From the sequence record NZ_CP121836.1: DNA of 61,154 bases; one strand, 5' to 3'. Positions within the stretch are counted from its first letter, which is position 1. Each line of letters opens with the position of its first letter. This DNA is from a plasmid. The notes beneath the pieces are model-generated. The model was not told the DNA's origin. It was given only the letters and a program-made list of their open reading frames with translations, and ran no database searches. A program made the position numbers and the translations under genes. This document shows, piece by piece, positions 3,742 to 61,154 of the stretch.

Positions 3742-3813
3742 CCCACGGCGTAACGCGCTTGCTGCTTGGATGCCCGAGGCATAGACTGTACAAAAAAACA
3801 GTCATAACAAGCC

Positions 3814-5335: not shown

Positions 5336-5461
5336 TGCCAGTCGCCTTGTCCGCCAAACGATCATTAGGCGGCCAAACCGGACGCCTGTCCGAAAACATC
5401 TTGCGCAACGGGATGACGGACAATAAGATAGGCGGACGGTATAACGGACAAATGGGCGGAA

Positions 5462-6037: not shown

Positions 6038-6043
6038 TATTTC

Positions 6044-6068
6044 GTGCAGTCACCTTCTGAAAACGACA
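6044..6068. repeat. Third Tn402-type 25-bp repeat, an IRi-like variant with 3 mismatches, in the same orientation as IRi. Located immediately after the resolvase stop.
   Basis: Plus strand GTGCAGTCACCTTCTGAAAACGACA compared with GTGCAGCCGTCTTCTGAAAACGACA at 5005-5029. Confidence 0.7.
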
Positions 6069-9000: not shown

Positions 9001-9184
9001 CCAGCAAGGCTTGCGGCGTGTTCAGCGTGGGCAGAAATTCGTAACCCTGATTGACCAGATCCTGAATCAGCTCGCGCTCCAGATCACTTTCGCTCTGGTA
9101 GCCTTCTGCGACCTTCCACTCTGGGCTGTATTTATCCAGAACGATAAAGTTGTTCGATTCGGCGATGGTTTTGTAGTCGCTCAT
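6086..9184 (-). CDS. hsdR: Type I restriction enzyme R subunit HsdR (1032 aa).
   Basis: SF2 helicase motifs (TGSGKT, DECH box [10 protein letters not shown]) and typical HsdR N-terminus [25 protein letters not shown]. Confidence 0.95.
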
Positions 9185-10216: not shown

Positions 10217-10227
10217 GGCAATTCCCT

Positions 10228-12998: not shown

Positions 12999-13213
12999 TT
13001 TAAAGTCCTGTTTCGATTCGTTGAGCCCTGCTCAGGCGCAATGCTTGAGCAGGAGTAAATGGGTTGTTACGGCAATAGGGCCGCGTTCTATCTCCCGGCC
13101 TTCTTCGCCTTGGGTCGATAGAAATCCTCGATTCTTCAGGCGGTCACCAACATATCGCCCGGCTTCTATCGCCCACCTATCGACGATAGTGCGCAGGTTG
13201 TCCGATAGGCTGC

Positions 13214-17201: not shown

Positions 17202-17362
17202 TAGCCTGGCCGTATCTTCCAAACCCAATAATTGCTCCCAATAATCGCCAGATGCCCTAAATAGCTGTTCCGAATAGTAGATCACCGGAGGAAGGGAACT
17301 CAGTCCAGTTTGTGCGATCTGATTAGTCGCTAAACAAAACAAGCCACACCCAAAGGACTGAG

Positions 17363-18397: not shown

Positions 18398-18485
18398 CAC
18401 TATTGGGATCAGTTATTTAGAACGCCTTCCAATCTCTGACAATGCCTTTCCATCAATGGAACCCATTAAGCAACCTCCCTGGTAA

Positions 18486-33775: not shown

Positions 33776-36700
33776 ATGGCAAATATTGCACAGGAAAAAA
33801 CATATCTGGCCATTCCTTTTGAAGAACGGAAAGACGCTTTTCGAGCTGCGGGCAAACTGCCAGACGGCAAGAACGCTTTGGGGCTGGATGAAGATAGCAA
33901 ACTCTGGTTTGCCAATCCTGGTGCGGATCTCGACAAGCTGAAAAAGTGGATACCGGACACCACTCGCCGGGCCGAACAAGGCGAAACAGATCCGGTCATT
34001 GAGTTTGGCCAGGCACTTGAAGACGCCGGTTTCATCCTCGATGGCGAACCACAGATGGACGGCAAGAAACACCGGGTTAGCACTGTAGACGACAGAGGCG
34101 GCCAGAAGTCGGGCGTTTATGTCGGATACCTGGACGGTGTACCGGCTGGCTGGTATCAAGATCACCGCATCCATAGCGAACCGCAGAAGTGGAAGGCTAC
34201 CGGCAATCGTATTGATCCCGAAGCACAAGCGCACCTGAAGGCAGTAGCGGCACAGCGCAAGATAGAACGCGACCAGGCACAGGCAAGACAGTACGACCAC
34301 AACGCCCACAGAAGCCAGCAAGCGGCCAGCCTAATGCCCGACGCCAACGGCCAAGAGCAATACTTGGTCAATAAGGGGGTGAAGGCTTTCCCTGGCGTGA
34401 AAACTGATAAGCGCGGGCGCGTTGTAATTCCGCTTCAGAATGAAAAGGATGAAGTAAGAACCCTGCAACGCATTAGCGGAAATGGCTTTAAATCCCTAAA
34501 GAAGAATGGCCAGAAATCAGGGAGTTATTTTGTTGTTGGCGGCGAGCTAAAAAATGGCGACCCGATTCTATACGCTGAAGGCTATTCAACATCGGCAACT
34601 ATCAGTGAAGCCACCGGGCGGCCTGTTGTGATGACTGTTGACGCTGGAAATATGCCGACAGTTGCCGCAAAGCTATTGGAAAAATACCCAGATAGCCAGC
34701 ATGTTTTTTTGGCAGACGATGACCGTAAAAACACAGCAAACAAGGGTAAGGAAAAAGCCGAGCAAGCAGCCACCATAACAAATGGCATTGCTCAAACCCC
34801 TATTTTCAATAATCAAGAGATTGAAAAAGGCTTTTCGGATTTTAATGACCTTGGCCAGTCAAGAGGGCTTGAGGTTGTACGGGAACAAGTTGAAGCAACT
34901 CTTAATAAGGTGGCGACCGTGGATAAAGTAGAAGAAAACACCGGGCCGGTAATTACGGATAAATTCGAGCGTGAAATTGATACCGCCCTGTCTAATTCAG
35001 AAGACAATCAAAAACTCGGTATTCTGCGTGATGACCAAGGACGTTTTTGGGACGGGCAAGAATTTGGCGACCTGGAAGACGCCAAGCGTTATGAACCAGT
35101 GGAAGCCCTGAAAGTGGCTGTCCATGTTTCCCGTCAATACGAATCAGAGTTAGAGGGAAGCCATATTTATATTCGCGCCGTTGAACAAGACGAGCCAAGC
35201 GATAGCGACGGGGTTCACGTTGTAAACACTGACCAGGCTATGAACTGGCCACACCTTGAAGCCGCTTATAAGAGAGGGTTCGGCTTGAATCTGGATCGTG
35301 ATGAAGCCCTGGCCATAACGGCCCGTTCGCCTGCTGCCGCCCTGGACAACCAAGAACAAGCCGCCGCCCCTGCTGCTGCCCTGGACAACCAGGAACAAGC
35401 CGCCGCCCCTGCTGCTGCCCTGGACAACCAGGAACAAGCCGCCGCCCCTGCTGCTGCCCTGGACAACCAGGAACAAGCCGCCGCCCCTGCTGCTGCCCTG
35501 GACAACCAGGAACAAGCCGCCGCCCCTGCTGCTACCCTGGACAACCAGGAGCCCGAAGAAAACGCCGTGGAGCCATTTATTGAGCGGAAAATAGAAACGG
35601 CTGACGCTGACGTTAGGGCATGGCTGACCAACAGCCGTCAACCCATAGGTGAGCTGATCGAGGAAGACGAGCGGAAGGCTCAACATAGACCACAAGCGGA
35701 AGGTGAATTTTCATCTGAACCAAGCCAGACACCGAAGGGCCAAGCCTCAAACTCTGACTTTGAAGCGACCACGTTCAAACCGATTGTTCCTGAGAAGGTC
35801 GCAAAGTCTTATATCGAGGTAGACGGCAAATATTACTTTGGCAATCGGCCTGATTCGCTGGCTTTCGTCGATAAAGGGGCCAAGTTGCAAACCAAGCTGT
35901 CGAGCGAGCAAGTAGCGGCCTCAATGGTCGATATTGCTGAAGCTCGGGGCTGGACTGAATTACAGCTCTCCGGTACTGAAGATTTCAGACGGGCCGCCTG
36001 GCTTGAGGCCGCATCACGGGGCTTGGCTTCTAGGGGTTACAAACCGAAAGAGGAAGACTTGGCCAGGCTCAAAAAGCTGACCAATGACCGGACTTCAAAC
36101 GAGATTGAGCCCAGGGAACAAGCTGACGTTGTACCGCCAGCAGCCAAGGGCAAAGAACAGCCGACGAACCAAGATAAGCAACAAGGCCAGCAGGCGGCCC
36201 AATCTCCCCAGATGGCCAAAGCGGCAGCCGCAACAGCGACCGCTGATAAGCAACAGCCTGAAGCGGCGGCCCCAGCTCAAGAAGTTAACCGGCTCGCGGG
36301 TAAGCTGGTTGAGCATGGTAAAGCCCCTTATGAGCACAACCCCGACAATAACGGGAGTTACTTTGTCACCCTTGAGAATGCAGACGGCCAACAAAGCACA
36401 ACTTGGGGTGTGGGCCTAGAAAAGGCGATTGAAGAATCCCAGGCCGAAGCTGGCCAGCATGTCGAGCTGGAAAACTTGGGACGCAAACCGGTACAAGTTG
36501 AAAAGCAGATCAAGGATGAAAAGGGTAATGTTACCGGCACCAAAACGGTTAACTCGTATCGCAACGAATGGGCTGTTAAGGCCGAAGCAATCCGCGATTC
36601 TTCCCGTGACGCTAAAGAGTTGGTCAAGGAGCACCCGGACTTAATCAACGAAATCACGGCGGTTAAGCTCGCTGAAAAATTCGCGGCGGCAAATTTGAGC

Positions 36701-41607: not shown

Positions 41608-42909
41608 TCAGCCCTCGATAACAGCAACAAGCTGAACTTGGTTCAGATCAACTTCGATTTCTTCCCCGTCGTCGTCGTACTTCAGCCAGCCCAAACCATA
41701 TGCAGCGCGGCGACTGGACAACAGGCGAGCCGGTCGCTCGTCATAGCGCACCTGAATGATCGGCTTCTTGATTTTGCCTTGTTGCTCGTCAGCGTTCAGC
41801 AGGGCATTAGCCGCCGCATCCGGCCCGCCCCCGCCAATCGGGGCACCGTCGATGGTCAACGGCTGTTGCTTGTCCTTATCGCCTTCACCTGGCCAGCCTG
41901 TGCCGCCTTGGTCGTCACTGTCCGGCTCCTTGTCGCCGCCTGCACCTGGCCAGCCTGCGCCGCCCTGGTCGTCACTGTCCGGCTCTTTGTCGCCGCCTGC
42001 ACCTGGCCAGCCTGCGCCGCCCTGGTCGTCACTGTCCGGCTCTTTGTCGCCGCCTGCACCTGGCCAGCCTGCGCCGCCCTGGTCGTCACTGTCCGGCTCT
42101 TTGTCGCCGTCTGCACCTGGCAAGCCTGCGCCGCCCTGGTCGTCACTGTCCGGCTCCGTGCTCGGGTTCTTCAGGTCATTACAGAAGCGGCGAACGTCTG
42201 CCGTTGTCAGTTCGTCCCCATCCTCGGCAACCATGCTTTCGATGCAATAGGTTTCCACCTCGTCGGGGTAGTTCTTGAATGAACGATGCAGGATAGCCAA
42301 GGCTTGAACGGACACGCATCGGCCCGAGTCGTACAGCTCACGAATGCAATCCGGCAACTCGAAAAAGCTGATATGGTCAGACACGAACGAAGCGGGCTTA
42401 CCCAGCTTTCCGGCAATCTCTGATTTCTTGTCTCCGTTGTCGATTTGACGCTGGATGAAGTGGGCCATTTCGAGGGCCGTCAGCCCCTCCCGTTGAATGT
42501 TATCGACGGCGTTATCGTACTCGTCGGCGTCAGAGTCGATAAACGCCGGGACGGTATCAAGGCCCGCTTCCTGTGCGGCCAGGTAACGCCGATAACCGGC
42601 GTTAATCATAAACTCGCCTTCAAGCTCCGGGTGAGGCTTCAGGCTAAGGGGGTTTTTCACCCCCCGTTGTTTGCCTGTTACCTTACTGACCGCCTTCATA
42701 GAGTCAGCCAGTTCGGTGATTTTTGCCGGGTCTACTCGCTGGCGACTGTTGTTAGGGTCTGGATGGATTTTGCTGATCGGTACTTCACGAATCAGCAGGT
42801 TGTTATTCTCTGGTTCCGCCGCCTCTACTGGCGCGGCACCAGGCCCGCCCATCAGGTCGGACAGGTTGAACGAATCCAGCCCGCTGAGGTCTGCCCCTTT
42901 ACCACTCAT
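41608..42909 (-). CDS. korB: ParB/KorB-family partition and global regulator protein, with an acidic Gly/Asp-rich 19-aa tandem repeat (x4-5).
   Basis: ParB N-terminal box KIHPDPNNSRQ...GYRRYLAAQEAGLDTVPAFI and a central HTH. Repeats DSDDQGGAGWPGAGGDKEP (57-bp unit, 41880-42160). Confidence 0.85.
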   Translation of the reverse strand: MSGKGADLSGLDSFNLSDLMGGPGAAPVEAAEPENNNLLIREVPISKIHPDPNNSRQRVDPAKITELADSMKAVSKVTGKQRGVKNPLSLKPHPELEGEFMINAGYRRYLAAQEAGLDTVPAFIDSDADEYDNAVDNIQREGLTALEMAHFIQRQIDNGDKKSEIAGKLGKPASFVSDHISFFELPDCIRELYDSGRCVSVQALAILHRSFKNYPDEVETYCIESMVAEDGDELTTADVRRFCNDLKNPSTEPDSDDQGGAGLPGADGDKEPDSDDQGGAGWPGAGGDKEPDSDDQGGAGWPGAGGDKEPDSDDQGGAGWPGAGGDKEPDSDDQGGTGWPGEGDKDKQQPLTIDGAPIGGGGPDAAANALLNADEQQGKIKKPIIQVRYDERPARLLSSRRAAYGLGWLKYDDDGEEIEVDLNQVQLVAVIEG

Positions 42910-44054: not shown

Positions 44055-45122
44055 TTACTCTTTGGTGTCGGCTGCGTCTTTTTTCTGTTGGCGTTTCGCT
44101 GTTGGCTTAGTCAACTTGTCGATCTCCTGGTTGGCTGCCTTCAGGCTTGCGGTGAGCGTGGCCCGTTCTTCCTTCAGCGCCTCGATGCTGCCCTGGTTGT
44201 CCTGGTTGGCCTTGGCCAGCTTGCCGATCTCCTGGTTGGCTGCCTTCAGGCTTGCGGTGAGCGTGGCCCGTTCTTCCTTCAGCGCCTCGATGCTGCCCTG
44301 ATTGTCCTGGTTGGCCTTGGCCAGCTTGTCGATCTCCTGGTTGGCCGCCTTCAGGTTCGCGGTGAGCGTGGCCCGTTCTTCCTTCAGCGCCTCGATGCTG
44401 CCCTGGTTGTCCTGGTTGGCCTTGGCCAGCTTGTCGATCTCCTGGTTGGCTGCCTTCAGGTTCGCGGTGAGCGTGGCCCGTTCTTCCTTCAGCGCCTCGA
44501 TGCTGCCCTGGTTGTCCTGGTTGGCTTTGGCCAGCTTGTCGATCTCCTGGTTGGCCGCCTTCAGGTTCGCGGTGAGCGTGGCATTATCAGAGGTAAACGA
44601 CTCGATAGACTGGCGACAAACGGCGAGTTCCTGAGTCAGCCGCTCAACCTCTGAAGCCAAGCCGATTGCCTTCTGCTCGATAGTGATCTTTTCAGAGAGG
44701 GCGGCCCGAGTCTCGGCCTCCTTTTCGCTCACAGCAACACGACAGCGATCTAGTTCACTTTCCAGGCGGGCCACTTCGTCCAGGGCTTCATCACGCTCCT
44801 GATCTGCCATAGCCACATGCTCGGCGGCATGAGCTTTAACCGCTTCAATATCAGCAGCAGCCAATTTACTAGCCACCTGCCACAACTCGGCAGCCACACG
44901 ATCAAACCCGGCTTTCAGCTCCCCCGGCAGCTCAATTACAACAATGTCCGATTGCTCTTGAGAGGCCCGCCACTCACGCATAACCGGCGAGATATGAGAC
45001 AAAGAGCCGCCGCCCATGCGCTCGCGCACCTGCTCATTTGTTGGCTTTGCTACCCCTTCAGATCGAAGTGATTCAGCAGCTCGGACGATCTTTTCTTTCA
45101 TTTCAGGCTTAATCATGGTCAT
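44055..45122 (-). CDS. kfrA: KfrA-like DNA-binding coiled-coil protein with 35-aa tandem repeats (x4).
   Basis: N-terminal DNA-binding region MTMIKPEMKEKIVRAAESLRSEGVAKPTNEQVRERMGGGSLSHISPVMREWR, then a long heptad-rich helix. 105-bp tandem repeat at about 44100-44600. Confidence 0.8.
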   Translation of the reverse strand: MTMIKPEMKEKIVRAAESLRSEGVAKPTNEQVRERMGGGSLSHISPVMREWRASQEQSDIVVIELPGELKAGFDRVAAELWQVASKLAAADIEAVKAHAAEHVAMADQERDEALDEVARLESELDRCRVAVSEKEAETRAALSEKITIEQKAIGLASEVERLTQELAVCRQSIESFTSDNATLTANLKAANQEIDKLAKANQDNQGSIEALKEERATLTANLKAANQEIDKLAKANQDNQGSIEALKEERATLTANLKAANQEIDKLAKANQDNQGSIEALKEERATLTASLKAANQEIGKLAKANQDNQGSIEALKEERATLTASLKAANQEIDKLTKPTAKRQQKKDAADTKE

Positions 45123-47763: not shown

Positions 47764-47940
47764 CGGAGTTCTCCGGTATTGACCGTGGCGGGTGCCCGGT
47801 CTTCTTGATTAAGATTATAGGCCAAAATGGCCTACCTTGGCAATAAAAAGCGCGCTCTACGTTAAAAAAATCACGTAGTCACGGGGGATTGCTGCCAAGA
47901 TTTCGCATAGCGTCGCCTGATTTCGTACGTACGAAATGGG

Positions 47941-48420
47941 CCACCTGGTCGAGCTGCTGCCGGTGCCTGGTGAGTTGGCCACCTGGTTGATTTCCTTCTG
48001 GCGTCCAGATCTGAACTTGGCCACCTGGTCGAGCTGCTGCCGGTGCCTGGTGAGTTGGCCACCTGGTTGATTTCCTTCTGGCGTCCAGATCTGAACTTGG
48101 CTACCTGGTCGAACTGCTGCCGGTGCCTGGTGAGTTGGCCACCTGGTTGAGCTGCTGCCGGTGCCTGGTGAGTTGGCCACCTGGTTGATTTCCTTCTGGC
48201 GTCCAGATCTGAACTTGGCCACCTGGTCGAGCTGCTGCCGGTGCCTGGTGAGTTGGCCACCTGGTTGATTTCCTTCTGGCGTCCAGATCTGAACTTGGCC
48301 ACCTGGTCGAGCTGCTGCCGGTGCCTGGTGAGTTGGCCACCTGGTTGATTTCCTTCTGGCGTCCAGATCTGAACTTGGCTACCTGGTCGAACTGCTGCCG
48401 GTGCCTGGCAAGTTGATCTA
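47941..48420. repeat. Iteron array 1: about 5.5 direct copies of an 80-bp unit, each containing two GGCCACCTGGTYGA sub-repeats. Putative oriV.
   Basis: Tandem units ccacctggtcgagctgctgccggtgcctggtgagttggccacctggttgatttccttctggcgtccagatctgaacttgg. Lies adjacent to repA. Confidence 0.8.
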
Positions 48421-50459: not shown

Positions 50460-50870
50460 AATAGATCAGGCCCGCCCTGTAATAGGGGAGGGACTTGTCT
50501 CACAACATTGAGGCGATCACCTGGTTGAGCTGCTGCCGGTGCCTGGTGAGTTGGCCACCTGGTCGAGCTGCCGCCTGTAATAGGGGAGGGACTTGTCTCA
50601 CCGCATCGAGGCGATCACCTGGTTGAGCTGCTGCCGGTGCCTGGTGCGTTGGCCACCTGGTCGAGCTGCCGCCTGTAATAGGGGAGGGACTTGTCTCACC
50701 GCATCGAGGCGATCACCTGGTTGAGCTGCTGCCGGTGCCTGGTGAGTTGGCCACCTGGTCGAGCTGCCGCCTGTAATAGGGGGGGACTTGTCTCACCGCA
50801 TCGAGGCGATCACCTGGTTGAGCTGTTGATTTACTTCTGGCGTCCAGATCTGAACTTAGCAACAGCCATC
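50460..50870. repeat. Iteron array 2: 4+ copies of a roughly 97-bp unit. It shares the ACCTGGTTGAGCTGCTGCCGGTGCCTGGTGAGTTGGCCACCTGGTCGAGCTG core with array 1 and adds a TAATAGGGGAGGGACTTGTCTCAC motif.
   Basis: Direct repeats seen at about 50460, 50570, 50665 and 50760. The extra motif also occurs at the repA 3' end (about 48595-48620). Confidence 0.7.
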
Positions 50871-50988
50871 ACCAACACAACATCTTGTGCGCCGGCAGCT
50901 GATCGCGGCCACCATATCTAGTGTTTCAATTTTGGATTGCGCAATCCAAAATAGGCGTAAAAATAACGATGGTTTTCTTTACATGATT

Positions 50989-53900
50989 GGGGTTCTAGGG
51001 ATTTTCCGTCCAAAAACGACAAAGTGCTCTGGAGGCCGCGCCGTCCGTGGCCTCCAGAGGGGTATTACTTTTCGCTGACGGGTAAATATCCCTCGATTGA
51101 GCGCATAAGCTCCTCCAGATCTGGCAATTTTTCGCTCAATTCGAAGTGGTAAGTCCCCTTGAGGTTAATGTTGTGCCAGGCCACAGGGGATGCCTGTTTG
51201 ACGATATCTATTCTCTTGGTATCTCCTTGGTATTCGAAGCTGGTCAACAGCTGGCTGAGTATCCTGGAGTTGAAGTAAACGATGGCATTGGTGACCAGGC
51301 GAGCGCACTCATTCCATAGCTGGATTTCTTCGTCTGAACTGCCCCGGAACTGATCCCCATTGACGCTGCTCACGGCCCGACGCAGTTGGTGATAGGCCTC
51401 TCCCCGGTTCAGCGCGCGCTGAACATAGTTTCTTAAACTGGCATCATCGATGTAGCACAGTAGATAATTCGCTTTCACCAGGCGATTGTATTCCGTCAGG
51501 GCTTCCAGCAGCGGGTGATTGCGCTTGTACTCCGAGAGCTTTCTCACCAAGGTGGCTTGCGTTGTTTTCCGCTGCTTAAGTGATACTGCAATCCGTTGGA
51601 TGGTATCCCAGTGCTGCGCAATACGATGGGTATTGATTGGCTTTTTTAAGCACAGCTGAATTCGGTGTTCTTTGTCTTCCTTGACATCAAACATGTCATT
51701 GATCACTTTGCCAACCTGGGCATAGCGTGGGGCAAACTGGTATCCGAACAGATCCAGTAACGCGAAGTTCACATGGTTCACCCCATGGGTATCGGTTGAG
51801 AGCACATCCGGAATGATGTCTGACGTATTGCTCATCAACAAATCAAAGATGTAGTGCGATTCATGTTCGTTGGCGCCGATCACTCTGGCGTTGATCGCAG
51901 CGTGATTGGCGATCAAGGTCATGGCAGAAACACCTTTTTGAGTGCCAAAGTACTTCGACGAATAACGGGTTTTGAAGGTCTCGCGCCGGGCTTCGAACTT
52001 TTGACCATCGGCACTGGCGTGGATCACATCTTCCTGGATGTTGTAGTACCGGAAGATGGGTAGCTTGGCTGTCGCGTTATTGATGTTGTCGTTAGCAGCA
52101 TTCAATGTTTCCAGGCGAAGATAGTTCGCCTGGATAGTGCTGAGCTGATCATAGGTACGATCAGAGATCTGTGCCATGCCGTAAATGCCTTGATTGGTTG
52201 CATTGCCGACCAGAATTGCCAACAGGTCATATTCATGGGAACGGCTTCTGGATTGGGAACCCAGCACATGAGCGAAGCAGTCAATGAAACCGGTGTCACG
52301 ATCAACCATGCGCAGTACATCCGCAATCCCCGTTGTGGGAATTTGCTGGAAGAAGGGATTGTTGACCAGATGATGTTTGCTGGCCGAAGGCAGGCGCCAG
52401 AAGCGTTTACCCTGCGGATTACGCAAGATGATATTCCGGTTGTCTTCCTGTTCAAGATATTCGCCGACTTCGTACAAACGGGTATCCAATTCCATGGCCA
52501 TCTGTTTGATCAGCTTTTCAGGCTCCTCCGCTAATTTTGTAAAATGGCTCTGTTGAAGCAGCGTATATTTGTTTTTTCGCCAATGTTCCCCGTCGATCAG
52601 GTCGGCGTCGAGTGCCCGGTATTTAGTGATATCAGGCAGCGTCAGCTGGCCATTCAGGCGATCAGGAATCTGTTGATAGAGGAACCACTCATAACGATCG
52701 ATCAGGATATTCCCTTCACCATCCAGCAGGAATTCACGTGATTTTTTGGAAAGGAGTCTGGTGTCGGCAGTTTGCAACTGAGCGTCCTGGCCGTTGAGTT
52801 CGTTTTGTGTTTTCGCCAAGGCGGCCGCTAAGTGCTGGGTGCCGTCGCAGCCTTCGAAGCGCAGACATAGGAACAACTCTCGCAGCAAACCTTTCCGCAG
52901 ACTTTCTTTCTCGTCGCAGTACTGCCACATGGCTTCATCGACCGATCGTCGCTGCTCGTTCAGGAAGAGACATACAGATTCCAGATCCCTTTTGGTCAGC
53001 AGGCTCAGTGCTTGCTGTCTTACTGTTGCAAACGGTAGTTGCAGATCAATGCTGTCATCAATGAACAGGTGCAGTACTTCAGCTGCCTTGCTGACATTTT
53101 TAGCTGCTTTTTGCCAATCCTTAAACACCGCTTCCTGCGCATAATCCTTTGCCTTCTGTTTGGTCTGTCTGACATGATGCACAAAGCCATCGGCAATACG
53201 TTCCAGCGCTTGCTGCCATCGCGTTTGAAGATAGCACAATAAATACAGCCATTGGCTGCCTACGGTTTGACGTTTCAGTTTGGCACCGTAGTAGTCGACT
53301 TTCTCTGCCAGGTGTTGCAGATTTTTCTGCGACAGTGATAGCGTGCTCAACAGCAGATCCACTTCCGGCATCCAATGCTGGATATGGCGATAGACAATCA
53401 GTTCTTTCTCCAACTCGGTTCCGGTGAAGTTACGAGCCGATTGTCGCAACTGTCGGAACGGCAGTGGACCTGTGCCGTTCACGAGCTCCGCCAGTGCTTG
53501 CTTAAGACCGCGTGACATTGCACGCTCAAGGTGCGCGGCCATGTGTTCCTGTTCGTCTCCCACCACCTGACTGATGATCTTTTGCAGCGTGCTGTAGGCA
53601 GGGATTGCGATCTTCTGCCCCGAACAATATTCAATGGCCGCATCGAAGAGGTGCCTAGGCGCTGTCCAGGCTCTGGCTTGCTGGGATAAGTAATCTCTCA
53701 ACGCCGCTCCATGGTCTTTGACATTCCAGCGCTGGTAGTTGCAGAGCTGGAAAACACGTTGGTAAATCCGTTCGTTCTCTTTTGGCGTGAGATTAAAGGG
53801 TCTACAGCCTGGGCCTGGTAGAACGGTTTGATAAACGTATTTGAGGTCCTGCTTGATCTGATGAAAGCCGGGATTCAGCACCACCGGCTTGGCTTTGAAA

Positions 53901-54226
53901 TAGCCCAGCAGTACCACCAGCATGTAACGCTGGCCCCGATGACGGAGGCTTTTAGCGATCGCCAGTTCCTTATCGTTCAGCGAGAAAAAGAAGCGTTGGT
54001 CGGCGGAGGTGAAAGCGGGGGGGTCCATATAACTCATCTTGTTCTGCCTCGGACAAGATTTGGACACGTTCTTCGAATGCCATGGATTTAGCCCAAAAAG
54101 ACTAAATCTTACTCAAACAGAGCCCAAATAGGGATCTCGAAAAAAAGTAATACCCCTCTGGAGGCCACAGACGGCGGGGCCTCCAGAGCACTTTGTCGTT
54201 TTTGGACGGAAAATCCCTAGAACCCC
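50989..54226 (-). mobile_element. IS1071-like Tn3-family insertion sequence (3238 bp): tnpA only, flanked by inverted repeats of about 88 bp starting GGGGTTCTAGGGATTTTCCGTCC. No direct target duplication.
   Basis: Left end 50989-51076 and right end 54139-54226 are near-identical inverted repeats. The 5-bp flanks are TGATT and TTGGT, not identical. Confidence 0.8.
51065..54067 (-). CDS. tnpA: Tn3-family transposase TnpA (1000 aa).
   Basis: DUF4158-like N-terminus (RFFFSLNDKELAIAKSLRHRGQRYMLVVLLGYFKAKP) and a DDE_Tnp_Tn3 C-terminal region. Confidence 0.9.
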   Translation of the reverse strand: MSKSCPRQNKMSYMDPPAFTSADQRFFFSLNDKELAIAKSLRHRGQRYMLVVLLGYFKAKPVVLNPGFHQIKQDLKYVYQTVLPGPGCRPFNLTPKENERIYQRVFQLCNYQRWNVKDHGAALRDYLSQQARAWTAPRHLFDAAIEYCSGQKIAIPAYSTLQKIISQVVGDEQEHMAAHLERAMSRGLKQALAELVNGTGPLPFRQLRQSARNFTGTELEKELIVYRHIQHWMPEVDLLLSTLSLSQKNLQHLAEKVDYYGAKLKRQTVGSQWLYLLCYLQTRWQQALERIADGFVHHVRQTKQKAKDYAQEAVFKDWQKAAKNVSKAAEVLHLFIDDSIDLQLPFATVRQQALSLLTKRDLESVCLFLNEQRRSVDEAMWQYCDEKESLRKGLLRELFLCLRFEGCDGTQHLAAALAKTQNELNGQDAQLQTADTRLLSKKSREFLLDGEGNILIDRYEWFLYQQIPDRLNGQLTLPDITKYRALDADLIDGEHWRKNKYTLLQQSHFTKLAEEPEKLIKQMAMELDTRLYEVGEYLEQEDNRNIILRNPQGKRFWRLPSASKHHLVNNPFFQQIPTTGIADVLRMVDRDTGFIDCFAHVLGSQSRSRSHEYDLLAILVGNATNQGIYGMAQISDRTYDQLSTIQANYLRLETLNAANDNINNATAKLPIFRYYNIQEDVIHASADGQKFEARRETFKTRYSSKYFGTQKGVSAMTLIANHAAINARVIGANEHESHYIFDLLMSNTSDIIPDVLSTDTHGVNHVNFALLDLFGYQFAPRYAQVGKVINDMFDVKEDKEHRIQLCLKKPINTHRIAQHWDTIQRIAVSLKQRKTTQATLVRKLSEYKRNHPLLEALTEYNRLVKANYLLCYIDDASLRNYVQRALNRGEAYHQLRRAVSSVNGDQFRGSSDEEIQLWNECARLVTNAIVYFNSRILSQLLTSFEYQGDTKRIDIVKQASPVAWHNINLKGTYHFELSEKLPDLEELMRSIEGYLPVSEK

Positions 54227-54464
54227 TTGGTGTGGGGTTTAGCGGGCTTTGCCCGCCTTTCCCCCCTGCCGCGCAGCGGTGGGGCGGTGTGTAGCCTAGC
54301 GCAGCGAATAGACCAGCTATCCGGCCTCTGGCCGGGCATATTGGGCAAGGGCAGCAGCGCCCCACAAGGGCGCTGATAACCGCGCCTAGTGGATTATTCT
54401 TAGATAATCATGGATGGATTTTTCCAACACCCCACCAGCTCCCCCCCTTCCTGGGTTTGCAGGT

Positions 54465-54560
54465 TTAGGGGCGTGACAGTTACGCCGGGGGTTCGTGACA
54501 GTTACGCCGGGGGGGGCGTGACAGTTACGCCGGGGGCGTGACAGTTGCGCCGGGGGACGG
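54465..54560. repeat. Four direct repeats of a 22-bp unit (GCGTGACAGTTACGCCGGGGG) immediately upstream of the truncated MobV relaxase gene.
   Basis: Copies at about 54470, 54492, 54517 and 54538; the last has T to G. Confidence 0.7.
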
Positions 54561-54911
54561 ATGGCGTTTGCGATCATGAGGGCGAAGAAGCTCAACAGCA
54601 TGGGCACGGTGGCGGCTGCGTTGCAGCACTGCTACCGCGACCGCGAGACGCCGAACGCCGATCAGGAGCGCACACCGGACAACGATCACCTGGCGGCCAG
54701 ATCGACCGATGAGGCGATGGGCAAGCTCAGGGAGCGGTTGCCGGAGAAGCGGCGCAAGGATGCGGTGCTGGCGGTCGAATACGTGATGAGCGCCTCGCCG
54801 GAGTGGTGGCAGACCGCAAGCGCCGACCAGCAGCGGGAGTTCTTCAAGCGATCGACCGAGTGGCTGGCCGCATGCCGAAAATTCAGATGCTCGGCGACGG
54901 CGATGAACTGA
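54561..54911 (+). pseudogene. MobV/Pre-family relaxase N-terminal fragment (the so-called truncated virD2 of floR contexts).
   Basis: MAFAIMRAKKLNSMGTVAAALQHCYRDRETPNADQERTPDN resembles the MobM-type N-terminus. The ORF ends after 116 aa. Confidence 0.55.
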
Positions 54912-55012
54912 ACAAGGGAAATGAGCGGTATCCTGCCAGACAGGATACCGACATTCACGAGGTTTCGATGGTTAGTGCGCCGCATCGGAGCGGGCCTGCT
55001 ACCAGTCGTCGG

Positions 55013-56227
55013 TTAGACGACTGGCGACTTCTCGGTGGCAGCCCCACGGAGCCGAAGGAGCACCAGCCCCAACGAAACCAGTACCGCCATCGCCGTGGCG
55101 TAACAGATCACGGGCCACGCTGTGTCACCGTTTAAAAGTGCCACCGCCAATGTCCCGACAATGCTGACTATCAGGCTTTGAACGCAGAAGTAGAACGCGA
55201 CCGCTGATCCCGCGATGTCGTCGAACTCTGCCAAAGCGCCGTTCGCGGTAACGGACACCGTGAAGACAATACCGACCGCGACAACCCACATCGGTAGGAT
55301 GAAGGTGAGGAATGACGGCGAGCCGTAAAGTTCGCCGATCCCCAACAGGACCGCTCCGCAAACAAGCAACGCCATCCCACGCGCCACGCATCCTGCGATG
55401 CCCCATCTGGCGACAAAGGACTTCGCGAAACGGGTTGTCACGATCATTACAAGCGCGACAGTGGCGAAGGCAAAGCTGAATCCGATCTCGGAATATTCCG
55501 CTTGGCCTATGAGCACACGGGGAGCCGTCGAGAAGAAGACGAAGTAGGTGCCCATACCGGCGCTAAAGCCGACAGTGTAAACCCAAAAAGCCGGACTCGC
55601 GAAGATCGGCAAGACAGATCGGCGCGTCTTGACTTGATCCAGAGGGCGGGTTTCGTGCCACCTGAAACCCGCATTTAGGAGTGCGAGCATCGCCAGTATA
55701 GCCAAAGTAATGAATATCGCCTGCCATCCCAAGAACTCGCCGATCAATACTCCGGCGATAGGGCCGAGCGCAGGCACGAACGCCAGCATCGAACTGAAAA
55801 GGCCGTAGATGACGACACCCTCAGGACGGTTGGCATAAACGTCGCGAACCGTCGCGAACGTCGCCACCAGCATGGCCGACGCGCCCACTGCTTGAAGTAG
55901 ACGGAAAGCGACAAAGGCCGGTGCAGTTGAAGACCAAGCTGCTCCCAGAGACGCAATGACGAAAGCCGTTGCGCCCGCAAGTAGAATTGGCCGTCGCCCG
56001 ATTCTGTCTGAGAGCGGACCAAAAATCACCTGGCCCACGCCGAGCATCACCATATAGAGGCTCAACGTGAGTTGGATCATAGCGGGCGTCGTGTTCAGGA
56101 TGCCGGGCATCGCTGGAACGACAGGGAGATAAATATCCATCGCCAGTGAAGCGAGGATGTCGAAAGGAGCCATCAGCAGCAGTGCTGCCGGCAGCGTATA
56201 GGCCCACGCGGGGCGTGTGGTGGTCAT
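55013..56227 (-). CDS. floR: Florfenicol/chloramphenicol efflux MFS transporter FloR (404 aa).
   Basis: Full-length FloR sequence MTTTRPAWAYTLPAALLLMAPFDILASLAMDIYLPVVPAMPGILNTTPAMIQLTLSLYMVMLGVGQ...LRLRGAATEKSPVV. Confidence 0.97.
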   Translation of the reverse strand: MTTTRPAWAYTLPAALLLMAPFDILASLAMDIYLPVVPAMPGILNTTPAMIQLTLSLYMVMLGVGQVIFGPLSDRIGRRPILLAGATAFVIASLGAAWSSTAPAFVAFRLLQAVGASAMLVATFATVRDVYANRPEGVVIYGLFSSMLAFVPALGPIAGVLIGEFLGWQAIFITLAILAMLALLNAGFRWHETRPLDQVKTRRSVLPIFASPAFWVYTVGFSAGMGTYFVFFSTAPRVLIGQAEYSEIGFSFAFATVALVMIVTTRFAKSFVARWGIAGCVARGMALLVCGAVLLGIGELYGSPSFLTFILPMWVVAVGIVFTVSVTANGALAEFDDIAGSAVAFYFCVQSLIVSIVGTLAVALLNGDTAWPVICYATAMAVLVSLGLVLLRLRGAATEKSPVV

Positions 56228-56420
56228 GACGAATCAACCCTCGATTAAGGAATACCGGGCGACGTCTGCTCGTCAGCAATCAGATGAGACTAGCCTTACA
56301 GAGCGCCGCAACAACAATACTGGTTGTTGCGGCTTACTTGTCTGCTGACTTGGAATTTCCCATCTGATTACTCCACGCTTACGAATATGAATTGCTACAT
56401 TTTATCCGATTATCTTTGGT

Positions 56421-56862
56421 TCATCGCGGCTTTCCGGGGAAGGCCGCCTTGATTTTCAGGAAAAAGTATTCTGAGTCCCGAAATCCATAGGCCATGCGTT
56501 TGATCACCTTGATTCGATTATTCACTCCCTCCAGCAGGCTGGTGTGCATTGGAAAACGGGAGCTGGCCAAGATGCCTCGGATGTAACGTCGAAGGTTTTT
56601 GGCAAAATTCTGCAGGGGCGCCAGACCACTTTCTCTGGCTTGGCGCATCCAGGCCCGCCATCGTTGCCAACCTTCCCGGATGCTGGGGGCGTACCAGATT
56701 TCCTTCAGTGCATCTTTGAGGACATAGGCTGTGGCCAAGGGCTTATTGGCTTCCAGTAGCTCTTGTAATTGCACCGCTTGTCCTTCCTTTAGATTTTCTC
56801 GATTGCGCAGTAGCAGCCAACGCGCTTGCTTGACCACCTTGCGAGCTGGCTTGTCATGCTGT
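56421..56862 (-). pseudogene. ISL3-family transposase C-terminal fragment, truncated by IS6100.
   Basis: ...ARWLLLRNRENL... and ...GVNNRIKVIKRMAYGFRDSEYFFLKIKAAF match ISL3-family C-terminal motifs. Confidence 0.65.
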
Positions 56863-57726
56863 TTGGCGGCAGTCAGAGGTAGGCTGTCGCTCTGCGCCGA
56901 TCAGGCGGCTGCTGCGAAATGGTGGTTGAGCATGCCCATGGCCTCCGTCAGCGCCGAGGGCCCAATGCCAAAAGCTCTCTCCACAAGGCGCACCTCGCCC
57001 CTGATGCCGGGCTGCAGGCACCAGGGGCGAGCCTGTCCTTTGCGCAGGGCTCGCATGACTTCGAATCCCTTGATCGTGGCATAGGCCGTGGGGATCGATT
57101 TGAAACCGCGCACCGGCTTGATCAGTATCTTGAGCTTTCCGTGATCGGCCTCGATCACGTTATTGAGATACTTCACCTGCCGGTGGGCCGTCTCCCGGTC
57201 CAGCTTTCCTTCGCGCTTCAATTCGGTGATCGCTGCACCATAGCTCGGCGCTTTGTCGGTATTGAGCGTGGCAGGCTTTTCCCAGTGCTTCAGGCCTCGC
57301 AGGGCCTTGCCCAGGAACCGCTTCGCTGCCTTGGCGCTGCGGGTCGGCGACAGGTAGAAATCGATCGTGTCGCCCCGCTTGTCGACTGCCCGGTACAGGT
57401 AGGTCCACTTGCCCCGCACCTTGACGTAGGTTTCATCCAGGCGCCAGCTCGGATCAAAGCCACGCCGCCAGAACCAGCGCAGCCGCTTCTCCATCTCCGG
57501 GGCGTAGCACTGGACCCAGCGATAGATCGTCGTATGGTCGACCGAAATGCCGCGTTCCGCCAGCATTTCCTCAAGGTCGCGATAGCTGATCGGATAGCGA
57601 CAATACCAGCGCACCGCCCACAGGATCACATCACCCTGGAAATGGCGCCACTTGAAATCCGTCATCGTTCCGTCCGTCCAATCTCCGCCAAGCATGCTCA
57701 AGCTTCACGATTTTTGCAACAGAGCC
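56863..57726 (-). mobile_element. IS6100 (IS6 family) lacking about 16 bp including the terminal IR at the transposase C-terminal end. The intact 14-bp IR GGCTCTGTTGCAAA is at 57713-57726.
   Basis: Transposase gene plus right IR. At the other end the identity stops after ...CTGACTGCCGCCAA and continues into ISL3-like sequence instead of TCTTTGCAACAGAGCC. Confidence 0.8.
56901..57701 (-). CDS. tnpA: IS6100 transposase.
   Basis: MTDFKWRHFQGDVILWAVRWYCRYPISYRDLEEMLAERGISVDHTTIYRWVQCYAPEMEKRLRWFWRRGFDPSWRLDETYVKVRGKWTYLYRAVDKRGDTIDFYLSPTRSAKAAKRF... matches IS6100 Tnp. Confidence 0.92.
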   Translation of the reverse strand: MSMLGGDWTDGTMTDFKWRHFQGDVILWAVRWYCRYPISYRDLEEMLAERGISVDHTTIYRWVQCYAPEMEKRLRWFWRRGFDPSWRLDETYVKVRGKWTYLYRAVDKRGDTIDFYLSPTRSAKAAKRFLGKALRGLKHWEKPATLNTDKAPSYGAAITELKREGKLDRETAHRQVKYLNNVIEADHGKLKILIKPVRGFKSIPTAYATIKGFEVMRALRKGQARPWCLQPGIRGEVRLVERAFGIGPSALTEAMGMLNHHFAAAA

Positions 57727-57824
57727 CACACGAGTATTGAGCATAGTCGAGATTGGTGCAGATCACTTCTGATATTGAACTGTCAGGAGCTGGCTGCACA
57801 ACAGCCATTACGCCCAATCAACTG

Positions 57825-57849
57825 GTGCAGTCGTCTTCTGAAAATGACA
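57825..57849. repeat. IRt, the 25-bp inverted repeat of the Tn402-family tni end, with the In4-type 123-bp end next to IS6100. Outer end at 57849, facing the cassette array.
   Basis: The plus strand reads GTGCAGTCGTCTTCTGAAAATGACA, separated from IS6100 by 98 bp. Confidence 0.85.
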
Positions 57850-58083
57850 ATCGTGCCACCGGCTCCAGGTCTTATCGAACAGCTCAGACACATGGTCCAA
57901 ATGCTGGTCGATCCGTTCGGCCAGTTTTTCGATGGCCTCTTGCTTGAGCTTGTCACTTTCCCTGAACTCGATGTTCAAGGCCCTGGCCACCTGGTTGAGG
58001 TTCCGGCCGATAGCTCCAAGCTGCCGGCACGATTCCCGTACGGTGTTCACTTCTTCATCAGTGAGGACCGGCATCCGGTTCAA
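57850..58083 (-). pseudogene. Truncated mobC-like gene. The internal 78 codons are similar to MobC (39701..40231) but cut at both ends, with read-through into IRt.
   Basis: ...PVLTDEEVNTVRESCRQLGAIGRNLNQVARALNIEFRESDKLKQEAIEKLAERIDQHLDHV compared with the full MobC ...PVLTESEIQALRTSNRELAAIGRNLNQIAKVLNTEFRESDKLNRQAV. Confidence 0.6.
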
Positions 58084-58212
58084 CGACCGCAGTCATTTCT
58101 GTACCTAAACAGTCCTGCGAATATGTGAGTTTTGACCTAATGAGCCACAAAAACTCATTTTCGCCCACGATAATTTTTCTACTTCCTTTCTTTGGAATGC
58201 TCATTTCAATAT

Positions 58213-58296
58213 TCACATAACGTCGCTATCAATCGCGGAAAAGGCGTAGTGCGCGAAGCGAACGAAGCTTTTTGCCGTCGATTGCATAGCTTTGTT
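58213..58296 (-). other. attC of the dfrA cassette (about 84 bp): inverse core GTTAAC at the gene stop, core GTTATGT at the distal end.
   Basis: Imperfect palindrome GTTAACAAAGCTATGCAATCGACGGCAAAAAGCTTCGTTCGCTTCGCGCACTACGCCTTTTCCGCGATTGATAGCGACGTTATGT on the reverse strand. Confidence 0.55.
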
Positions 58297-58777
58297 AACC
58301 CTTTTTCCAAATTTGATAGCAATAGTTAATGTTTGAAGTAAAGTGTTGCTCAAAAACAACTTCGAAGGTATTTGGAATACTCGGGAAGAAAACATCCCCC
58401 TCTGGCTCGATGTCGATCGTCGATAAGTGGAGCGTAGAGGCCATGGGTAATGTTTCTCGGTAAATTTCTCCGCCACCAGACACTATAACGTGACCGGTGA
58501 ATTCAGCTAGCCTGTCCATGGCCTCTTCGATTGACTGAAATACAACTACATTGTCATCATTTGATGTCCAACCTGAGCGGGTAACGACCGCGTATTTCCT
58601 ATTGGGGAGTGCGCCCATAGATTCAAACGTCTTGCGACCCACCAGAAGCCACTGATTGTAGGTCAATGCTTTAAAAAGTAGCTGCTCCCCTTTCGCGGAC
58701 CAGGGTATGTCTGGACCGCAACCAATCACGCCGTTTTTCGCTTTCGCAGCCATCAATGATACTTTCAAGGTTCTCAT
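58295..58777 (-). CDS. dfrA: Trimethoprim-resistant dihydrofolate reductase, DfrA1-group (dfrA5/dfrA14-like).
   Basis: ...[64 protein letters not shown]...[15 protein letters not shown]...[12 protein letters not shown]. Confidence 0.9.
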
Positions 58778-58802
58778 CCTGGGTTAACGCTTGAGTTAGA
58801 CA

Positions 58803-59594
58803 TTATTTGCCGACTACCTTGGTGATCTCGCCTTTCACGTAGTGAACAAATTCTTCCAACTGATCTGCGCGCGAGGCCAAGCGATCTTCTTCTTGTCCAA
58901 GATAAGCCTGTCTAGCTTCAAGTATGACGGGCTGATACTGGGCCGGCAGGCGCTCCATTGCCCAGTCGGCAGCGACATCCTTCGGCGCGATTTTGCCGGT
59001 TACTGCGCTGTACCAAATGCGGGACAACGTAAGCACTACATTTCGCTCATCGCCAGCCCAGTCGGGCGGCGAGTTCCATAGCGTTAAGGTTTCATTTAGC
59101 GCCTCAAATAGATCCTGTTCAGGAACCGGATCAAAGAGTTCCTCCGCCGCTGGACCTACCAAGGCAACGCTATGTTCTCTTGCTTTTGTCAGCAAGATAG
59201 CCAGATCAATGTCGATCGTGGCTGGCTCGAAGATACCTGCAAGAATGTCATTGCGCTGCCATTCTCCAAATTGCAGTTCGCGCTTAGCTGGATAACGCCA
59301 CGGAATGATGTCGTCGTGCACAACAATGGTGACTTCTACAGCGCGGAGAATCTCGCTCTCTCCAGGGGAAGCCGAAGTTTCCAAAAGGTCGTTGATCAAA
59401 GCTCGCCGCGTTGTTTCATCAAGCCTTACGGTCACCGTAACCAGCAAATCAATATCACTGTGTGGCTTCAGGCCGCCATCCACTGCGGAGCCGTACAAAT
59501 GTACGGCCAGCAACGTCGGTTCGAGATGGCGCTCGATGACGCCAACTACCTCTGATAGTTGAGTCGATACTTCGGCGATCACCACTTCCCTCAT
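58803..59594 (-). CDS. aadA1: Aminoglycoside 3''-adenylyltransferase AadA1 (263 aa), fused cassette with blaOXA-10.
   Basis: MREVVIAEVSTQLSEVVGVIERHLEPTLLAVHLYGSAVDGGLKPHSDIDLLVTVTVRLDETTRRALINDLLETSASPGES...VKGEITKVVGK. Confidence 0.95.
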   Translation of the reverse strand: MREVVIAEVSTQLSEVVGVIERHLEPTLLAVHLYGSAVDGGLKPHSDIDLLVTVTVRLDETTRRALINDLLETSASPGESEILRAVEVTIVVHDDIIPWRYPAKRELQFGEWQRNDILAGIFEPATIDIDLAILLTKAREHSVALVGPAAEELFDPVPEQDLFEALNETLTLWNSPPDWAGDERNVVLTLSRIWYSAVTGKIAPKDVAADWAMERLPAQYQPVILEARQAYLGQEEDRLASRADQLEEFVHYVKGEITKVVGK

Positions 59595-59610
59595 GATGTT
59601 TAACTTTGTT

Positions 59611-60411
59611 TTAGCCACCAATGATGCCCTCACTTTCCATGATTTTGGTGGGAATGGATTTTCTTAGCGGCAACTTACTTTCGTTGTCTATATCCATGTT
59701 AAAGGCGAAAAAGTAAACCTCTGTCTCCTTCTCAACCCACCCAACCCACCATGCGACACCAGGATTTGACTCAGTTCCCACACCAGAAAAACCAGTTTTT
59801 GAATGCACTAGATATTCAGGTGCCGCCTCCGTTACCAAAGCCTCTTTTACTATTAGCTGGTTTTCTTTAGATGCTGACAATTTATTTAAATATAGAGACT
59901 CTAGAAACTCCACTTGATTAACTGCGGAAATTCTAAGCTGGCCTTCCAACCAGAATTTGTCAATGCCACCACTGATATTCTGGTTGCCATAGGAAAATTT
60001 TTTAAGGTATTTCTGCATTCTTACTTCGCCAACTTCTCTGGCGATTTGTTGAAATACGGGAACAGCTGAAACTTGTATTGCCCCTCTTAAGGTCAAGTCT
60101 CTTTCCCATTGCTTCATGGCTCTTGGCTTTCCGTCCCATTTGAAAACCTGATGCTCATTCTTTATGACACCAGTTTCTAGGCCGATAATTGCGTTGGGGA
60201 TCTTAAATGTTGATGCTGGAAGATATTCCTTTGATGCACGAGCTAAGTCATTGGTAGCGCAGGATTTACTGCTACTTTTACAAAGCACGAAGACACCATT
60301 GACGGCTTCGGCAGAGAACTCTTTGTTCCAAGACGTATTTTCTGTAATTGAACCAGCTAATGCCGTACTCGAAAGACACGCGATAATTACATATGCGGCA
60401 AATGTTTTCAT
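59611..60411 (-). CDS. blaOXA-10: Class D beta-lactamase OXA-10 family (266 aa).
   Basis: [95 protein letters not shown]...[12 protein letters not shown]. Confidence 0.95.
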
Positions 60412-60424
60412 GGCACCTTCTTGG

Positions 60425-60597
60425 TGGCTAACGTTAATTCGACCTCAGAGGCGTTTAAGTCAAAATACCTCTGACGTCTAACATGATTAATCAAAGTCTG
60501 ATTTTTTAACAAAATCAGAAAGATAGACGCGAAACTTTAAAACAAAGGCGTCAACACTTCAAGTAGCGATCTTTCGCTTCGGCGAGGCCTAACGCCT
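60425..60597 (-). other. Short ORF-less gene cassette of about 170 bp between cmlA and blaOXA-10, with its own attC-like palindrome ending GTTAGCC at the blaOXA-10 cassette boundary.
   Basis: Reverse strand: the cmlA attC ends ...GGCTGAGCTCAGGCGTTAGGC. Then 170 bp follow, ending in the palindrome GTTAGACGTCAGAGGTATTTTGACTTAAACGCCTCTGAGGTCGAATTAACGTTAGCC, directly followed by ACCAAGAAGGTGCCATG (blaOXA-10). Confidence 0.45.
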
Positions 60598-60675
60598 GAG
60601 CTCAGCCGACCGAAACCGCGTAGCGGTTTTGGGTCGGCTGCAGCGATTTGTTGGGCGATAGCTTGCCACATTCTC
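60598..60675 (-). other. attC of the cmlA cassette.
   Basis: Imperfect inverted repeats CGCCCAACAAATCGCTGCAGCCGACCCAAAACCGCTACGCGGTTTCGGTCGGCTGAGCTCAGGCGTTAGGC downstream of the cmlA stop. Confidence 0.55.
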
Positions 60676-61154
60676 TCAACGATTGGGATTTGATGTACTT
60701 TCCGCACTTTGTAGCGCGACCACATCATGCTCCCCCTGGCCGCGAGAGCCCTTCACTCGGGAAACACAAGACAGACCGAGCACGACTGTTGCAAGGGTCA
60801 AACAGTACACGACAACCGGCCAAGCCGTGTTGCGCGGCAACAGCGAAATGATCAACGTTCCGATGCTTCCTAGCAGTACACCGCCCAAGCAGAAGTAGAC
60901 TGCCGTGACCGTTCCAGCAACATGGTCGAATCCTCGAAGAGCGCCATTGGGCGACACAGATACCGCTGTGGCGACACCAATACCCACTAGCCACATTGGA
61001 GCAATAAAGCCTAACACGGACTGCGAAGCCCATATTTCGGTGATGGCAAGCAATACTGCTCCAGCTATCAGGCATCCCATTCCCATTCGCAAGACACTTG
61101 GGCTGCCCCACTTGGGTATCACACGCCCCATAAAACGAGCCGTAAACACCATGG
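60676..61154 (-). CDS. cmlA: CmlA C-terminal 159 codons (continuation of the CDS that starts at about 781 and wraps through position 1).
   Basis: MVFTARFMGRVIPKWGSPSVLRMGMGCLIAGAVLL...SCVSRVKGSRGQGEHDVVALQSAESTSNPNR, which is the CmlA C-terminus. Confidence 0.95.
   Translation of the reverse strand, partial: MVFTARFMGRVIPKWGSPSVLRMGMGCLIAGAVLLAITEIWASQSVLGFIAPMWLVGIGVATAVSVSPNGALRGFDHVAGTVTAVYFCLGGVLLGSIGTLIISLLPRNTAWPVVVYCLTLATVVLGLSCVSRVKGSRGQGEHDVVALQSAESTSNPNR

Follow-up and report, generated by a model that had tools for sequence, protein, structure and literature searches.

Integron In191 has been described as ending in 'mobC-IRt-IS6100, IRt', with its 3'-conserved segment (3'-CS) lost (PMC7319535). 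Similarly, the order 'dfr-mobC-IS6100' has been reported for pRSB107 (PMC3639385), and In1832 of Aeromonas veronii combines the array qnrVC4-...-dfrA14b with an IRt 'repeated directly to the IRi' and with IS6100 as its end (PMC10614715). A tail of this kind was studied here in the plasmid record NZ_CP121836.1, of which a stretch of 61,154 nucleotides was analysed (hereafter the window, to which all positions refer); the region in question, 56863-58212, lies next to the last complete gene cassette, dfrA14, and contains an IRt end and an incomplete copy of the insertion sequence (IS) IS6100. The record is a circular plasmid of the IncU group, its backbone is of the pRA3 type, and its class 1 integron has the array qnrVC4-aacA4-cmlA5-blaOXA-10-aadA1-dfrA14. 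Sequence comparison indicates that the tail of this integron is the already known, widespread dfrA14-mobC-IRt-IS6100 block, inherited unchanged apart from its clipped outer end. Taken as a whole, the locus is very probably explained by the inheritance of an In191-type tail on an IncU plasmid together with a private, homology-independent loss of the outer end.

The integron has the attributes of its class, namely a 5'-conserved segment with IRi, intI1 and attI1 and a cassette array with attC sites. The In191-type integrons (pHCM1, pKPN3-307, pRSB107) lack the 3'-CS as well and share with the window, at 100% identity, the succession of the dfrA14 attC, 371 bp, the inner IRt, 98 bp and nucleotides (nt) 17-880 of IS6100; from the attC through the inner IRt to IS6100, the window is 100% identical to both pHCM1 and pVAS3-1. 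Yet the In191-type integrons have dfrA14 alone, whereas the window has six cassettes, and in the window IS6100 stops 16 bp short of its end and the outer, 152-bp copy of IRt is missing. The In4-type integrons (the family of In4 from Tn1696, represented here by pRA3 and 52 genome loci) have in common with the window IS6100, the 123-bp inner IRt, its orientation and the lack of tni genes. Nevertheless, their inner IRt adjoins the 3'-CS (orf6-orf5-sul1-qacEdelta1), whereas here it adjoins a mobC fragment and a cassette remnant, and the outer IRt is missing. In pVAS3-1, an IncC plasmid of Vibrio alginolyticus (KU160531) whose integron has relatives in Aeromonas, Providencia, Klebsiella and Escherichia coli, the cassettes cmlA5-blaOXA-10-aadA1-dfrA14 and the tail are 100% identical to the window over 5,870 bp. 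By contrast, pVAS3-1 has an extra qacF/H cassette, no IS30-family insertion and a complete IS6100 that is followed by an mphR-mrx-mph(A)-IS26 unit. In1832 (Tn6737 of Aeromonas veronii, PMC10614715) and pJARB-RN-0061_VEB-1 (LC745731, hereafter pJARB) resemble the window in the order qnrVC4-...-dfrA14b, in an IRt that is direct to IRi and in the IS6100 that comes next, and pJARB has the same miniature Tn402-like element beside IRi. They differ in having blaVEB-1-aadB where the window has blaOXA-10-aadA1, and pJARB keeps its outer IRt and a 5-bp target duplication.

Orientation and spread of the IRt-IS6100 tail

On the plus strand, as read over 55000-61154 and in the list of open reading frames (ORFs), the order is floR, a C-terminal fragment of an ISL3-family transposase, IS6100, IRt, a MobC-like ORF and dfrA14; dfrA14, aadA1, blaOXA-10 and the 3' part of cmlA5 all lie on the minus strand. 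The inner copy of the Tn402 IRt end is 123 bp long (57727-57849, minus strand) and is made up of 98 bp beside IS6100 (57727-57824) and the 25-bp IRt (57825-57849), whose outer end, TGTCATTTTC, stands at 57849 and faces dfrA14. The initial annotation had recognised this 123-bp end after IS6100, in agreement to the base, and also the direction of its outer end, but had concluded from it that the end is inverted relative to the cassette array. The 152-bp outer copy of pHCM1 starts with these same 123 bp, without any difference. Both pHCM1 and pJARB have such a 152-bp copy at the opposite end of IS6100; in pHCM1, it lies on the side of the right inverted repeat (IRR) of IS6100 and its outer end points away from the integron.

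The orientation of this end was surveyed by a scan, with each species represented by one genome, for the exact junction of the left inverted repeat (IRL) of IS6100 with the 123 bp, which yielded 66 loci from very diverse bacteria. The outer end of the 123-bp IRt adjoins the 3'-CS in 52 of the 66, in the form of one constant sequence leading to orf5, sul1 and qacEdelta1 (on the cassette strand, sul1 at +1074 to +1913 and qacEdelta1 at +1907 to +2254). It adjoins a second constant flank, provisionally assigned to a chrA-padR region, in five loci and the mobC sequence of the window in four. The order in pRA3 is outer IRt, 152 bp, IS6100, 123 bp, inner IRt, 3'-CS, cassettes and intI1, and in pRA3 as in the 52 genome loci sul1 and qacEdelta1 are on the strand that dfrA14 occupies here. 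Since IS6100, the 123 bp and an IRt facing the cassettes follow one another in the same way in these 52 loci and in pRA3, the orientation is canonical and the supposed inversion does not stand; the copy that normally bounds the integron is the 152-bp one. The flanks of this outer copy vary by site, whereas the inner flank is constant within each type, and in pJARB the whole integron, including its mobC-IRt-IS6100-IRt tail, is bounded at IRi and at the outer IRt by the 5-bp direct repeat AAAAC. Both observations argue that the 152-bp outer copy is the functional terminus. These alignments show that the IRt of the window is the inner copy that is canonical for the In4-type module IRt(123)-IS6100-(152)IRt, and that it has its canonical orientation. 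For annotation, this means that an IRt facing the cassettes beside IS6100 is the normal In4-type inner copy and not evidence of an inversion. Transposition of the 1,155-bp IRt-IS6100-IRt module as a unit into mobC was also considered and rejected, as in none of 19 loci do the 5 bp beside the inner IRt match those beside the outer IRt.

Nowhere in the window is there an outer 152-bp copy, and IS6100 does not lie between inverted IRt copies as it does in In4-type integrons. On the tail side there is a single class 1 IRt (57825-57849), which is direct to IRi and turns its outer end inward, and the integron is not delimited by inverted IRi and IRt at both outer boundaries like the members of the Tn402/Tn5053 family. 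The 5-bp duplication that accompanies the outer IRt in In191-type tails is not found either: the flank of IRi is GTTTT, the same as in pJARB (AAAAC on the other strand), and its partner is gone. The integron also has no 3'-CS, and the succession qacEdelta1-sul1-orf5 that comes after the last cassette in In4-type integrons is missing. The absence of qacEdelta1 and sul1, already remarked upon in the initial annotation, was verified with probes that have no match anywhere in the window and that matched 49 other loci at 99.5-100%. The ORFs of the accessory region encode a type I restriction-modification (R-M) system, RhuM, an AlbA_2 protein, IS elements and a small resolvase; no TniA-, TniB- or TniQ-like ORF is among them, in keeping with the lack of tni genes in In4-type integrons.

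One possibility, close to what had been proposed at first, is that IS6100 caused an inversion or adjacent deletion in this plasmid by which an In4-type end was turned around, the 3'-CS was lost and the integron was linked to the floR module. Among IncU relatives, pRA3 for example does carry an In4-type integron with IS6100 and, compared with pRA3, the integron here has the opposite orientation to the backbone. Yet the orientation of IRt is that of canonical In4-type loci and, moreover, the tail without 3'-CS predates the plasmid. The block 56863-58800 is 99.9-100% identical over its full length in the best 30 plasmid matches, 12 of which are at 100% to the end of the query; their hosts are Aeromonas, Vibrio, Klebsiella, E. 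coli, Salmonella, Pseudomonas and Providencia, and they include pHCM1 of S. Typhi CT18. In addition, a 441-bp probe across the joint (IRt, mobC, the 128 bp of the cassette remnant and the end of attC) finds at least 1,071 PLSDB plasmids at a coverage of 80% or more. The view that the 3' end of the integron was reshaped here has to be given up in light of these matches. Because the tail is widespread and already published, both the missing 3'-CS and the direction of IRt are inherited and do not record events in this plasmid. The dfrA14-mobC-IS6100 tail devoid of 3'-CS has spread globally, and it explains why such integrons are missed by polymerase chain reactions that are based on the 3'-CS.

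The 371 bp between IRt and the dfrA14 cassette

The gap between IRt and the dfrA14 attC measures 371 bp (57850-58220) and comprises a mobC fragment and a 128-bp cassette remnant. The mobC fragment (57850-58092, minus strand; Pfam MobC), whose 5' limit is uncertain within 58072-58092, aligned in an exhaustive HMMER search to residues ~92-175 of full-length relatives of 171-176 amino acids (aa), which are only 54-62% identical to it. The fragment ends in ...SRWHD where its relatives end in ...NRWDET*, ...KRWD* and ...NRWN*, and IRt adjoins its extreme 3' end. It had been called a doubly truncated mobC-like fragment, which is correct for the 5' side, where ~92 codons are lost, and only marginally so for the 3' side, where the loss amounts to at most 1-3 codons. 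A word-based search for the plasmid from which mobC came returned nothing but further copies of this fragment.

The remaining 128 bp (58093-58220, minus strand) had been described as about 130 bp of unknown DNA, an estimate that was right in length. Nevertheless, this sequence has a recognisable origin as the 5' remnant of a gene cassette, of unassigned function. It begins exactly at the crossover point G|TTATGTG (58221/58220) and contains, 16 bp further in, the start of an ORF (MSIPKKGSRK...); the remnant encodes MSIPKKGSRKIIVGENEFLWLIRSK... A TARA marine metagenome contig (L073) encodes a protein, P0174, that is 69% identical, and the homologous DNA has ~75% identity. In L073, too, the homologue lies behind an attC-like inverted repeat, which ends in GCAGCGTTATGTG (its end being given as GTTATGTG). 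Because the 128 bp start at the crossover boundary and have a marine homologue behind an attC-like end, they would correspond to the 5' end of a second gene cassette. A different candidate, a frameshifted N-terminal coding sequence of mobC, was rejected since the 128 bp have no significant MobC similarity in any frame. As for the marine contig, its positions 80-250 hold a diverged full-length relative behind the attC-like site, and an ORF of 161-172 aa of unknown function comes next. The common ancestor of these tails may then have had a longer array, the end of which would have been replaced by a mobC/IRt joint that arose from a Tni-type insertion.

The joint between IS6100 and the ISL3-family fragment

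Only the joint 56862/56863 is specific to this plasmid. On one side of it, nt 17-880 of IS6100 (56863-57726, minus strand) are identical at 864 of 864 positions to the complete, 880-bp IS6100 of pHCM1. A complete copy has 14-bp inverted repeats at both ends; pairwise alignment with that of pHCM1 shows that nt 1-16 are missing here and that the rest is 100% identical. The 16 missing nt, on the IRR side, are GGCTCTGTTGCAAAGA and include the 14-bp terminal repeat, and the sole IS6100 repeat in the window is the IRL at 57713-57726. The initial annotation was right that this copy has lost its terminal 16 bp, with one inverted repeat, where the ISL3 fragment adjoins. The transposase gene (56901-57665, minus strand) is intact and encodes a 254-aa DDE protein, 100% identical to that of the pHCM1 copy, which scores 285.6 bits against the NCBIfam profile transpos_IS6 (cutoff 125). 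In the conserved In4-type module, IS6100 is flanked by the 123-bp and 152-bp copies of IRt and not by an 8-bp target duplication.

On the other side lie the 3'-terminal 451 bp of an ISL3-family IS (56412-56862, minus strand), which are 98.7% identical to an IS in pKAZ2 and cover positions 113-240 of 240 in Pfam DDE_Tnp_ISL3 and 240-368 of 370 in NCBIfam. The matches that define these parts of the tail and its neighbour are 98.7-100% identical over hundreds of bases, and none is a chance similarity. The inverted-repeat end of the ISL3 fragment is intact on the floR side, and the cut, at 56862, falls within the transposase gene. The terminal end of the fragment (56412) is located ~185 bp upstream of floR (55013-56227, minus strand, in the ORF list), at the point where the usual floR contexts part from the window, and this side of the fragment looks like an ordinary ISL3 insertion. 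The gene floR is part of a 2,189-bp unit (54229-56417) that contains a Mob_Pre fragment (54561-54911, Pfam) and is found at 99% identity in 59 plasmids; the unit is unchanged in these plasmids, some of which are 7.8-kb IncQ1 plasmids. It is preceded by the Tn3-like IS3000 (~50975-54228), and the pRA3-type backbone resumes at 50990.

At the joint itself, nt 17 of IS6100 is fused to an internal point of the ISL3 transposase gene with 0 bp of microhomology, as judged against the IS of pKAZ2 and an intact IS6100. The 16 bp of IS6100 and the 29 bp unique to the 152-bp copy are absent from the window even when up to 3 mismatches are allowed, and the window has no second or inverted copy of IS6100. 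Since the missing sequences are nowhere in the window and IS6100 is single, the outer end was lost and not inverted or moved.

Several routes may lead to such a joint. IS6-family elements do make adjacent deletions and inversions, which speaks for the local IS6100 event discussed above. In these events, however, the IS stays intact with its inverted repeat at the new joint, and an inversion adds a second, inverted copy of the IS. Here, the inverted repeat of IS6100 has itself been deleted, which is beyond its transposase as IS-mediated events end exactly at the repeat; the ISL3 element is cut internally; and a single IS6100 is present, with no inverted duplicate. These three features argue that IS6100 did not make the joint, and a local event driven by this element has hardly any probability left. 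What survives of the initial proposal is a deletion-type event that brought the tail next to the floR module, without IS6100 as its agent. The ISL3 element was rejected as the cause as well, because its own copy is cut internally whereas IS-mediated events end exactly at the inverted repeat. Likewise, an IntI1 crossover at GTT or GWT secondary sites would have produced GCTGATTGG, which differs from the observed GCTGTTTGG. As the IS6100, ISL3 and IntI1 routes all fail, either illegitimate recombination or an assembly artefact remains.

In the latter case, the joint would come from misassembly or from a chimeric read, and the real plasmid would have a complete IS6100 and an outer IRt. The 35-mer across the joint, GCTGGCTTGTCATGCTGTTTGGCGGCAGTCAGAGG, has no match in PLSDB, in GTDB genomes (one per species) or in JGI metagenomes; the joint bears neither microhomology nor a transposition signature, and IS6100 and ISL3 repeats often break assemblies. 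Yet repeat-induced misassemblies join within shared homology, and the two sides share none. Besides, the record has no other copy of IS6100 or ISL3 to cause a collapse, and the window closes into a circle that fits an IncU plasmid and an integron without a break: the backbone is 99.9% identical to that of pRA3 and, when the end of the window is joined to its start, the integron matches that of pVAS3-1 at 100% over 5,870 bp, through cmlA5 across 61154/1. We consider an artefact to be unlikely.

Illegitimate recombination could also have taken place between molecules. A pJARB-like block made up of the miniature Tn402-like element and the integron up to nt 17 of IS6100 would then have entered an IncU plasmid that already had IS3000, floR and ISL3. 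In accordance with this, the block formed by the miniature element, 7 bp, IRi and the integron is also present in non-IncU plasmids, with the same flank at IRi, and both flanks of the block differ from pRA3. Nevertheless, the outcome would be indistinguishable from that of an intramolecular deletion after a cointegrate, and we hold an intermolecular origin to be very unlikely.

The explanation that we favor is thus an inherited tail whose outer end was lost in this plasmid. The order of events that we infer would start from an In191-type tail inherited as a block, comprising the dfrA14 attC, the 128-bp cassette remnant, the 3' half of mobC, the 123-bp inner IRt and IS6100. In intact relatives, this block continues with the 152-bp IRt copy, the real integron terminus recognised by Tni, and the tail has the 1,155-bp module IRt(123)-IS6100-(152)IRt in common with In4-type integrons. 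An ISL3-family IS would have inserted ~185 bp upstream of floR, and an illegitimate deletion or join would have had its two end points past nt 16 of IS6100 and within the ISL3 transposase gene. The outermost 168 bp, which correspond to the end repeat of IS6100 and the true terminal repeat of the integron, would have disappeared in this way.

Some points weigh against this explanation. It does not account for the joints between the cassette remnant and mobC and between mobC and IRt in the common ancestor. A chimeric assembly would likewise give a 35-mer without matches elsewhere. The searches returned no sibling plasmid that has a full ISL3 element beside floR and a complete IS6100 with the outer IRt, and the deletion is for this reason deduced from its end points and not reconstructed. 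The In4 orientation rule comes from the present survey of loci and not from primary descriptions of In4, and the loss of mobility is something that we infer.

With regard to this mobility, established IS6 biology suggests that an IS6100 with a single end, although it still encodes its transposase, would form no cointegrates and would not move. Similarly, according to Tn402 biology, an integron with IRi but no correctly oriented IRt could no longer be mobilised by Tni acting in trans. The independent mobility of the integron and of IS6100 has probably been lost, in which case the resistance genes would move only with the conjugative IncU plasmid or by recombination. The structure as such is already known and its private part is an ordinary truncation, not a new kind of rearrangement, and it advances no open question of the field. 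Two points are perhaps undescribed, although this is rather doubtful: the cassette remnant in every In191-type tail, with relatives in marine integron-like contexts, and the loss of the outer IRt through a blunt join without homology, which would leave the integron locked in place beside a one-ended IS6100.

Other features of the integron and the plasmid

The dfrA14 cassette spans 58221-58800 (minus strand), with its coding sequence at 58295-58768 and its attC at 58221-58294; it matches the DfrA family and is 100% identical to pVAS3-1 and pHCM1. The cassettes upstream of it (58803-61154, minus strand) are aadA1 (58803-59594), blaOXA-10 (59611-60411) and cmlA5 (60676-61154 and 1-781), all 100% identical to pVAS3-1. 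Past the wrap-around, the remainder of the integron (1-5029, minus strand) contains the 5' part of cmlA5, aac(6')-Ib (996-1637), qnrVC4 (1717-2373) and attI1, followed by intI1 (3814-4827, plus strand) and IRi (5005-5029). Between qnrVC4 and the side of attI1 and intI1, there is an IS30-family insertion of 1,086 bp (2484-3569), whose transposase is divided between two overlapping ORFs. Neither pVAS3-1 nor pJARB has this insertion, which separates all the cassettes of the array from the Pc promoter. Furthermore, a qacF/H/L cassette of ~503 bp, which pVAS3-1 and pJARB have between qnrVC4 and aac(6')-Ib, is missing at ~1571-1578, in what looks like a clean cassette loss.

The miniature Tn402-like element (5037-6068, ~1 kb) contains a 25-bp IRt that is the same as the class 1 IRt, a fragment of a YafQ-toxin gene, a serine resolvase gene and an IRi-like repeat. 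It stands back-to-back with the IRi of the integron (5005-5029) with a 7-bp spacer, and this joint is found in 113 plasmids. In pRA3 (L075), the sequence GTGGC flanks both the outer IRt of the integron and the IRt of the miniature element (32966-32995 and 44812-44841), so that the 11.9-kb unit between the two IRt ends bears a 5-bp direct repeat. This repeat suggests a Tni-type transposition with IRt/IRt ends.

Relative to pRA3, the plasmid has an additional type I R-M block (6086-14851) with hsdR, a rhuM-family gene, hsdS, hsdM and a gene for a protein with AlbA_2 and RecG C-terminal domains, and its IncU backbone is broken by an IS630-family insertion of 1,158 bp (17260-18417). Staggered self-offset matches in the comparison with pRA3 revealed tandem repeat arrays in the backbone at 35330-35550, 41880-42156, 44101-44582, 47939-48415 and 50472-50828, with periods of roughly 39, 57, 105, 80 and 98 bp, which are presumably iterons or repeat-containing genes.

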